Source of the DNA: Candidatus Latescibacterota bacterium
GTDB taxonomy: Bacteria; Latescibacterota; UBA2968; GCA-2709665
Reading direction: 5' to 3'
Assembly: GCA_965226795.1 (NCBI GenBank)
Contig: CBDDDZ010000005.1
Coordinates: 928,001 to 992,000 of the forward strand
Length of the DNA stretch: 64,000 bases
The notes beneath the pieces were generated by a model. It was not told the origin of the DNA. It searched no databases and saw only the letters and a list, made by a program, of their open reading frames with translations. Position numbers and translations under genes: made by a program. This document shows positions 57,686-64,000 of this stretch, piece by piece (position 1 is the stretch's first letter; each line of letters begins with the position of its first letter).

Positions 57686-58321
57686 GTGGCACAAAGCGCA
57701 GACACTCGCGCTGAACCGATGCGCGGGCCCATCCATCCGTCCTGTTCGGACCACGAAAGAAGGCATAACTCTTCGATCCGTGCGACGAGGTGTTCGGCGC
57801 GCTCGAATGAGACCCATGCCGGTACGTCGATCAGCCTCTTCGTCTACGGCACGCTCAAACGCGGGTACTCGAACCACGACAGTTATTGTCGGGGCGTGCG
57901 GGCGATTGAAAAGGCGCTGGTCCGCGGACACCTCTACATCAGGCCCGATCGCATCCCTTTTCTCGAGGTGCCGGAGCAGGATATCCTTGCGGAAGGAACC
58001 GCAGACCCCATCGCCGACGCGGCCGCGCAGGAACGCCTTTCCAGTCACATCGGACCTCCACAATTGGCCGAAAGCCCGCCCGGAAAGCCCGCGAGCGGCC
58101 GGGGCGTCGTGCACGGGGAATTGCTCGTATTCGACGATCCCGAAACCCGCCTGCCCGCCATCGACCGCCTGGAAGGCTTCCGGCCAGGCGGTCGAAGTCT
58201 TTACCGCCGGGTACTGGCGCCGGTTCTTGTAAAGGAAACCTGGCGGGCGGCGTGGGTCTACGCGGTCGATACAAAGCCCCTCGAATGGCCCAGGCAGAAC
58301 TCCGGGCGCTGGATGGGGTGA
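57686..58321 (+). CDS. Gamma-glutamylcyclotransferase (AIG2-like); start uncertain, conserved domain begins near 57835
   Basis: LFVYGTLKRG..NH, VHGEL, IDRLEGF, YRRV, AWVY. Confidence 0.85.
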   Translation: MAQSADTRAEPMRGPIHPSCSDHERRHNSSIRATRCSARSNETHAGTSISLFVYGTLKRGYSNHDSYCRGVRAIEKALVRGHLYIRPDRIPFLEVPEQDILAEGTADPIADAAAQERLSSHIGPPQLAESPPGKPASGRGVVHGELLVFDDPETRLPAIDRLEGFRPGGRSLYRRVLAPVLVKETWRAAWVYAVDTKPLEWPRQNSGRWMG

Positions 58322-62230: not shown

Positions 62231-63034
62231 ATGGATGTAGGAACAAATTCTGACCACTCAAAGTCGGGAAATCCTGATATGAAACCCGGTGAGAAAGATT
62301 ATCAGGCGTTAAATCAATATTCTGAAACTCGTTACAAAGAGTTATCGGGATTGCTCAAACCATACGTCGCAATAACCGACGCATTTGGAAAGCTGGTATG
62401 CCGCATCAGCATCTGCCTCGGCATCACGCCACCTACGGATACTCAGGATTCTGTGGTCAGAGATCTTATGGCTGATGTTTTCGATTTTCTCTTCGAATCC
62501 AGAGCCATGATTCTGCAGGGTAAAATCCAAATTGCCTATGTGCTGGCACGCAGAGCCTATGAATCGCTTTCGCTGTTGTCACTTTGTGCCCAAGACTCAG
62601 AATATGCAGATAAGTGGGAATCAGGTAAGAAGATTTTTAATAAAGAGGTGAGGAAGCAACTCGAAAAGCAACCATTCAGCGAATCAGCGGACCGAACACA
62701 AGAGCTATATAGTTTCTTTAGCAAGGTGGCGCACCCCAATAGAGACTTAGTTGCCCATCGCTACCTTGGGCAGGGCAACCGTTTCGTCTTCGGTTCAATA
62801 GGAAAGCCGGATCTTGTTTTTATCGCTGATTTCTGCTATAGGCACCTACAGCTTTGGTTTTGGTTTGGTGCCCTAGCGGGTTATAGACATCACGTGCTTC
62901 TGGATAAGCACGATCCAGATTTCATAAAGGAATATTTCCTCGCCACAGATCAAGCAGAAGAGATAGCCGAGTGGTTGGCAAAACAGTTCAATCGTCTGCT
63001 CAAAGAAGCCCAGGAAAACCTGGCAACGACATGA
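62231..63034 (+). CDS. DUF5677-like (HEPN-related) helical protein with lower GC than the surrounding genes
   Basis: AYVLARRAYE and YSFFSKVAHP motifs; AT-rich codon usage; start at 62231 or 62279. Confidence 0.6.
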   Translation: MDVGTNSDHSKSGNPDMKPGEKDYQALNQYSETRYKELSGLLKPYVAITDAFGKLVCRISICLGITPPTDTQDSVVRDLMADVFDFLFESRAMILQGKIQIAYVLARRAYESLSLLSLCAQDSEYADKWESGKKIFNKEVRKQLEKQPFSESADRTQELYSFFSKVAHPNRDLVAHRYLGQGNRFVFGSIGKPDLVFIADFCYRHLQLWFWFGALAGYRHHVLLDKHDPDFIKEYFLATDQAEEIAEWLAKQFNRLLKEAQENLATT

Positions 63035-63315
63035 AGAGTGCCGCATAAACCATTCGCGAACTAGGTATGACACCAGTCAGCTATCAGGGTGGCAAGTTAC
63101 GGTCCCCCAAAAGCTGTGACGAATGACGAAGTGCTTTGGACGCATAAGTGAAAGCAATTCTCGGGCATCAAACGTCTGTAAGATCGCGGCATTAGTGGTT
63201 AGTTGATTCCGGCAATTTGGATATCCAAGTACAGGTACTTCAACGGCTGCGCCGGATGTTACCGGCAGAGCCATGATGCGTTGACTCGAATGTGTAAATG
63301 TCATACTTGACCGAA

Positions 63316-64000
63316 ATGAAAGTTGTGCGCGATCACATCTTTATCAGTTACGCGACTGAACAGTCCGCGCTTTGCGACTGGCTTGCCCGTCGACTTGCTG
63401 CCGAAGGGTACGCTATATGGTGCGACCGCCAGAAGCTGCTTGGCGGTGAGAACTGGCCCAACGACATCGATGCGGCGATTAATGAGCGAACTTTCCGTAT
63501 GCTTGCGCTGCTATCCCGGGCATCTATGAACAAGCAGAATCCGCAAGGAGAGTGGCTGAAAGGTAATGCAATCGGAAAAAAGCTGGGCATTGTCGACTTC
63601 GTTATACCGTTGAATACGGAAGGGCTCCGACCGGACGAAATCACCTGGAATCTGCAACCCATCAACTACATTCCGTTTACGCCGAGTTGGGCCGAAGGAT
63701 TAGCGGCGCTGCTGAAGAAACTCACTTCCTTGGACGCACCCCGGTCATTAAGGGACGGTCCGCGGATTGCCGTGGGGTCAATGGTCGCAAACAGCACGAT
63801 TCGAGATGAATCCGAAATTCTGGTAAGTAACTGCTTCGAGATTGTGCAGACACCACGATACATTCGGAAGTATACATCTGAGACAAATCTCTCCCCGGCC
63901 GAGCGCCGTGTATTACGGAAAGAATGGGCATGTCGCGATTTGTCGCCGACTCTCGTGATTGCCTTTGACGATCCGACCTCGACGGTGAAAGAGAGATATA
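63316..64000 (+). CDS. TIR-domain protein resembling the TIR-APAZ subunit of SPARTA; 3' truncated by the window end; not in the ORF track
   Basis: Manual translation MKVVRDHIFISYATEQSALCDWLARRLAAEGYAIWCDRQKLLGGENW...NPQGEW...FVIPL...NYIPFTPSWAEGL...EILVSNCFEIVQTP; open to 64000. Confidence 0.85.
   Translation, partial: MKVVRDHIFISYATEQSALCDWLARRLAAEGYAIWCDRQKLLGGENWPNDIDAAINERTFRMLALLSRASMNKQNPQGEWLKGNAIGKKLGIVDFVIPLNTEGLRPDEITWNLQPINYIPFTPSWAEGLAALLKKLTSLDAPRSLRDGPRIAVGSMVANSTIRDESEILVSNCFEIVQTPRYIRKYTSETNLSPAERRVLRKEWACRDLSPTLVIAFDDPTSTVKERY

Follow-up and report, generated by a model that had tools for sequence, protein, structure and literature searches.

Does the reading frame that runs off the end of this stretch encode one half of a SPARTA immune system, and what would such a system be doing inside another defence operon? 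By definition, SPARTA is an operon of a TIR-APAZ protein with a short prokaryotic Argonaute (pAgo) (PMC9097488). For the 64,000 nucleotides of Latescibacterota DNA analysed here (the window), the original prediction proposed a TIR-APAZ gene opening at ATG 63316 and a short pAgo gene just past position 64000. Both genes are present, and the pair is embedded in an Hma operon, with hmaA before it and hmaB after it.

Gene pair and its surroundings

The first ORF lies on the forward strand and has no stop before the window end, with 228 of its 450 codons inside the window, enough for the TIR domain and the first part of APAZ. Once the contig is read past the window, the stop is found at 64668, and the ATG of the short pAgo gene is 7 nt past it (Table 1). 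An earlier in-frame ATG is located at 63298, six codons before 63316; the start at 63316 is favoured, since the equivalent position is where most of the 12 close relatives shown begin. The ORF is not a chance one, because it matches Pfam TIR_2, PADLOC and PDB SPARTA entries. The junctions between the upstream gene and TIR-APAZ, TIR-APAZ and pAgo, and pAgo and hmaB are bridged by contigs from a run of another study with 0 differing letters, so the gene arrangement is not an assembly artefact. Identical sequence pieces are present in a run labelled as sponge metagenome. Both SPARTA reading frames are intact at this locus, with a GC content of 0.50 and 0.53 versus 0.58-0.60 for the hma genes.

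Table 1. Genes of the Hma operon and its cargo. Numbering past 64000 is the window numbering carried on (contig position minus 928000).
Feature	Coordinates	Strand	Description
hmaA	58615..62220	+	HTH, SNF2 helicase, C-terminal NOV_C; 1201 aa; PADLOC HmaA E 1.9e-159; first gene of the Hma operon
267-aa variable cargo gene	62231..63034	+	low GC (0.456)
TIR-APAZ	63316..64668	+	TIR about residues 5-140, then APAZ; 450 aa
short pAgo	64676-66181	+	501 aa; MID-PIWI (by sequence)
hmaB	66200-69445	+	PADLOC E 6.4e-113
699-aa cargo gene	69614-71713	+	between hmaB and HEC-01
HEC-01A/B	72132-74106	+	PADLOC E 5e-192, 8e-94
hmaC	74179-77505	+	PADLOC E 3.4e-76

The 267-aa cargo gene has no Pfam or PADLOC match and is absent from all other loci searched (L003-L074). 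Its Atlas feature scores are 0.94-0.97 to an unnamed cluster and to clusters named DUF5677 (10% of members) and DUF6988; we take it to be a possible HEPN-like stand-alone defence gene. The 699-aa cargo product shows weak ATPase matches at its N end and a weak PDC-M36A match at residues 558-629, and has a 76% relative in locus L065. A GGACT-family gene (57686-58321) is located just 5' of hmaA, and the opposite end of the defence cluster has a partial second copy (contig positions 1011192-1011383; 59% over 64 aa). The two copies may mark insertion boundaries.

The TIR-APAZ protein

All motifs quoted in the original prediction are found in the translation: HIFISYA (residues 7-13), WLARRLAAEGYAIWCD (22-37), NPQGEW (75-80, including E79), FVIPL (95-99) and SWAEGL (124-129), with ESEILVSNCFEIVQTP at residues 165-180. 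Pfam TIR_2 matches with E 1.5e-18, the TIR domain starting at residue 8, and the PADLOC model Aga_TIR-PNTD1-PNTD2 with E 1.6e-74. Eight PDB sequences match at E up to 0.001, every one of them a TIR-APAZ chain, and the SPARTA match begins at residue 5 and ends at 412 or 438 (E 7e-23 to 3e-19). The solved SPARTA structures matched represent three close systems.

The likeness was expected to extend past the TIR domain into APAZ, and it does: residues 152-450 searched alone match SPARTA TIR-APAZ chains only (best E 9e-6). The AlphaFold2 model built from a 91-row alignment has a mean pLDDT of 86.1; in a fold search SPARTA entries account for all matches listed, to rank 33, and APAZ-only chains match the model as well (8jr8_B, TMt 0.72, rmsd 3.9). 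This is a single TIR-APAZ protein without an extra Mrr nuclease domain, and no in-frame domain is found upstream. Its C-terminal tail is acidic (net charge -9 over the last 35 residues), the tail being net negative in 91/91 homologues. The pAgo gene directly follows TIR-APAZ in 63/63 metagenome relatives with room for it, i.e., those with at least 600 bp downstream out of 80 loci kept.

The short Argonaute

Over its full length the downstream product can be aligned with the short Argonautes of Crt, Bab and Map (E 2e-100 to 5e-98), against E 5e-43 or worse for the remaining short pAgos among the matches listed, and it is matched by the PADLOC model pAgo_I (E 1.5e-170). Judging by its sequence, it consists of MID and PIWI only and is closest to clade S2A.

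A MID-PIWI protein without the catalytic tetrad had been anticipated here. With the DEDX positions placed by the PIWI motif, two of the Asp positions are presumably occupied by A277 and R355, and D478 is present at the last one, so that the PIWI domain appears to lack an intact catalytic tetrad. The Crt Argonaute has V and R at the same two positions, and the relatives have A in 47/54 and R in 53/54 cases.

The residue equivalences given below were read by hand off PDB alignments of both proteins. Six of the seven residues of the guide 5'-phosphate pocket (H207, K211, Q222, K263, R225, T228, N468) are identical; the exception is H207, replaced by R204, and this arginine is shared by 53/54 Argonautes. 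K208, Q219, K256, N460 and N462 of MID/PIWI are found in 54/54 Argonautes, and the terminal Ile is kept as well. Among the residues of the Ago-Ago dimer, D132, E134, R135 and Y262 are kept and K504/Y505 correspond to R/F, while G43 stands at the position of Y37, next to an insertion of five residues, and S145 at that of D137.

With an APAZ C-terminal part and a PIWI gene downstream, the two points at which it could have failed, the SPARTA interpretation of the original prediction is supported. The embedding in Hma and the differing residues are additions beyond it.

Comparison with characterised SPARTAs and proposed mechanism

Characterised SPARTAs take 5'-phosphate RNA guides from the transcriptome and are held off by the acidic tail. 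Complementary ssDNA brings about a 4:4 complex, in which the TIR tetramer turns NAD(P)+ into ADPR and nicotinamide. They remove cells with high-copy plasmids, and phage protection was weak in tests (PMC9097488, PMC10355822 and preprints, for all of these properties).

The pair described here resembles MapSPARTA, CrtSPARTA and BabSPARTA (clade S2A; PMC9097488; PDB 8fex, 8ifk, 8qlo) in gene order, domains, fold and size (450 + 501 aa versus about 450 + 507). Common to all of them are the catalytic Glu, the BB-loop Gly, N174, the acidic tail, most of the 5'-phosphate pocket and the non-catalytic PIWI. We consider it probable that this intact SPARTA works as the characterised systems do, hydrolysing NAD+ on RNA-guided detection of foreign DNA, and does so independently of Hma. 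By analogy with Map, Crt and Bab, TIR-APAZ and the Argonaute would form a heterodimer kept off by the acidic tail, with the MID pocket binding a 5'-phosphate RNA guide. Target ssDNA would expel the tail, the Argonautes would dimerise, and four TIR domains could then build composite active sites. The ensuing loss of NAD(P)+ would kill or arrest the cell, providing abortive immunity. The NADase activity of the TIR domain is what we infer from the same analogy.

Several alignment-based differences speak against a plain copy. Identity in the structural alignment of TIR-APAZ is about 20%, and residues W46, R54, Y105 and R114 of the TIR domain as well as H207, Y37 and D137 of the Argonaute are replaced. 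A conserved Trp (W111) specific to the lineage and the location of the operon inside Hma are further differences from the Map, Crt and Bab systems.

Overall, the pair is a divergent new copy of a system already known; it belongs to a branch for which we found no characterised member and is located in a known Hma hotspot. As neither the system nor the hotspot is new, the discovery itself is an ordinary one. Searches of literature open without subscription (SPARTA with Hma, sponge symbionts, Planctomycetes) gave, among the matches listed, no paper on this branch or on the SPARTA-in-Hma arrangement. Since the branch lacks several residues treated as essential, it is well suited to testing whether the published activation mechanism holds generally.

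TIR residues and a predicted tetramer

The Glu of NPQGEW was predicted to be catalytic, and E79 indeed aligns with the catalytic E77 of characterised SPARTAs; Glu occupies this position in 91/91 homologues. As a control, it is present in 36/36 single TIR-APAZ proteins and in 0/12 nuclease-fused forms (two of the 12 were scanned, and both match the REase-TIR model). These Mrr/REase-TIR-APAZ short pAgo systems (S2A subclade) share R204 in the Argonaute and are nearby in the tree, but they are about 600 aa long with an N-terminal nuclease, whereas the protein studied here has no nuclease and keeps the Glu.

T11, G42, F45 (as W47), R71 (as K73), N116 and N174 are also kept. N174, needed for SPARTA activation according to the literature consulted, corresponds to N172 here and is found in 91/91 homologues. 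Four other positions differ: W46 corresponds to P48 (W in 0/91 homologues), R54 to N56 (R in 2/91), Y105 to P106 (aromatic in 0/91) and R114 to P115 (R in 0/91). Mutants of these four residues impair or abolish activity in characterised SPARTAs (10.1101/2023.09.23.559129, PMC10474274, 10.1101/2023.09.17.558117). H9 of those systems corresponds to Y12, and no substitute for the adenine-stacking Y105 was found. Conserved in the branch instead are W111 (90/91), K73, P76, E45 and R38.

When TIR residues 1-142 were modelled in four copies together with NAD, the score was 0.69 versus 0.02 for the best control; since SPARTA TIR tetramers are already solved, the modelling program may simply have memorised them, and this pass shows likeness, not binding. 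The mark used for such oligomer models is reached by 20/30 proteins solved as pairs and by 1/23 solved alone. At least 62% of contacts are common to the model runs, with pLDDT of at least 83. The BB-loop touches the beta-D/beta-E face, and W111, in the place of I110 and D111 of Map, packs against helices B and C, including E79. The lineage is predicted by the model to form the same tetramer of TIR domains by way of other residues, Trp111 being set on helices B/C of the neighbouring TIR.

The TIR domain is the more conserved part of the protein (mean column conservation 0.78 versus 0.58 for APAZ). In pairwise comparisons with seven relatives its dN/dS is 0.04-0.10 in 6/7 pairs, one pair being saturated, versus 0.15-0.29 for APAZ (6/7 pairs) and 0.05-0.11 for pAgo (5/7); most pairs have a dS close to 1 or higher, which makes all these values rough. 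The TIR domain is under purifying selection.

This bears on two other views of the replaced residues. It is extremely unlikely, in our opinion, that the TIR domain is catalytically dead, or the operon decaying, with defence exerted by Argonaute binding alone. Such a state could be read from the loss of four tested TIR residues, from the broken copies in loci L010, L015 and L062 and from the loss of the Glu in nuclease-fused relatives, but here both frames are unbroken, the Glu at E79 never varies, the TIR domain and the Argonaute have equally low dN/dS, and a second effector domain is absent. We also regard as very unlikely an active TIR domain with other chemistry, i.e., a different substrate preference or a cyclic ADPR-type product signalling to a neighbouring gene. 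The active-site neighbours H9, W46 and Y105 have become Y12, P48 and P106 despite the strong conservation of the TIR domain, as this view would have it. However, none of the neighbouring genes is retained as a receiver, with cargo varying by locus, and the AbTir residue tied to cyclic products in the sources consulted corresponds to W46, which is absent here.

Position inside the Hma operon

The helicase gene hmaA, the methylase gene hmaB and the ATPase gene hmaC are the top PADLOC matches, lie on one strand in this order and have cargo in both junctions. This agrees with Hma, as defined in PMC8565338, and with its published forms with embedded cassettes (10.1101/2024.01.29.577857; PMC11232893), in which the gene order is the same and both junctions hold cargo, including HEC-01. 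Embedded genes are reported in 931 of 1,485 Hma systems (62.7%), with Septu, PARIS, Ppl and HEC systems named; Figure 1D or the supplements of that study may list SPARTA (10.1101/2024.01.29.577857). Insertions between hmaA and hmaB have already been described as well (PMC11232893), and a search of the supplement to that paper gave 32 TIR matches and no Piwi/Argonaute rows. Unlike in the published examples named above, the hmaA-hmaB cargo here is SPARTA.

In species genomes, 60 Argonaute loci were found by scanning. Thirteen of them (L003-L015) are 73-85% identical to the present one, and the 12 full-length members form one clade with it (support 1.0). hmaA is located upstream in 12/13 of these loci, the exception (L008) being a 6-kb contig, and hmaB downstream in 11/13, the other two (L004, L008) ending within 2 kb. 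A further lineage member, L172, also has hmaA upstream, so that the lineage total including this locus is 14/15. None of the other 47 Argonaute loci, 22 of them with full flanks, has hmaA. The lineage is spread over Latescibacterota, Chloroflexota, Poribacteria and one genome labelled Gemmatimonadetes, i.e., at least three phyla; the wide branch includes Verrucomicrobia, Planctomycetes, Latescibacterota, Chloroflexota and others. Among Latescibacterota, TIR-APAZ is matched in 17 of 168 genomes, eight of these belonging to this lineage. The steady position inside Hma makes the source of the single-stranded DNA targets of SPARTA testable.

Small genes for retropepsin-like aspartyl proteases of two subtypes occur repeatedly between hmaA and hmaB, whether or not SPARTA is there (L003, L004, L006, L007, L009, L010, L013, L014, L065, L067, L069 and L070; Pfam below cut-off). 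No such gene is present at this locus.

Cargo or partner of Hma

The association with Hma could mean that SPARTA is functionally coupled to it, either because the HmaA helicase-nickase supplies ssDNA targets or because SPARTA is a suicide backup for when Hma is overcome. We consider such coupling unlikely. It would explain the presence of hmaA upstream in nearly all lineage loci, with one well-supported clade across phyla, and the fact that pAgo adjoins hmaB here and in 9 of the 11 relatives showing hmaB; HmaA also has reported nickase activity (PMC11232893). HmaA distances track those of the SPARTA proteins too (Mantel rho 0.74 with pAgo over 12 loci and 0.80 with TIR-APAZ over 11 loci), though the related loci are not independent and the Mantel p values overstate the case. 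HmaB distances, however, show no clear tracking (rho 0.37 and 0.25 with pAgo and TIR-APAZ; p 0.08 and 0.19), and in the HmaA tree loci with and without SPARTA are interleaved.

Hma operons close to this one often hold different cargo. An hmaB of at least 76% identity is present in 11 of 61 related genomes, and this SPARTA in only three of the 11; the eight close Hma operons lacking it include the one with the closest HmaA (L063, 87%). This Argonaute was found in 0/14 genomes of the same genus. An internal deletion in L015 and a stop in L010 break SPARTA in place; both loci have whole hmaA and hmaB genes. Other cargo separates hmaA from TIR-APAZ at all loci except one, and the replaced residues are common to relatives outside Hma. 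Elsewhere the hmaA-hmaB slot holds CBASS, OLD-like, PARIS-like and Menshen genes (39 proteins scanned from 63 cargo ORFs of at least 150 aa). Finally, a distant SPARTA (28% and 39% identity; L178:8978-11925) is located between hmaB and hmaC of a canonical Hma and is an independent insertion into it; Arg likewise takes the place of H207 in its Argonaute.

Most likely, then, the link with Hma is that of a hotspot cargo, co-inherited for a long time without being required by Hma. One old insertion into the hmaA-hmaB slot, followed by joint transfer of SPARTA and operon and by recurrent loss or replacement, is the simplest reading. The 14/15 count and the distances tracking HmaA run counter to a pure cargo status. 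The boldest version of the partnership, in which SPARTA is a resident Hma partner that travels with hmaA across marine-sponge symbiont phyla, has a rebuilt TIR interface, is triggered by HmaA-processed DNA and adds suicide to restriction as a second layer, seems unlikely to us.

Three further loci may be mentioned. A lineage remnant at L062:6285-6711 (48 aa of APAZ beside 90 aa of pAgo) lies among housekeeping genes, with no Hma found there. The genome studied here has a second, distant Hma-like locus (G000:C2:155070-183967) with two hmaB-like genes and a HEC-01A-like gene. In L020:870-7041, a SPARTA from outside the lineage is located directly 5' of BREX pglX and a GajA-like gene.
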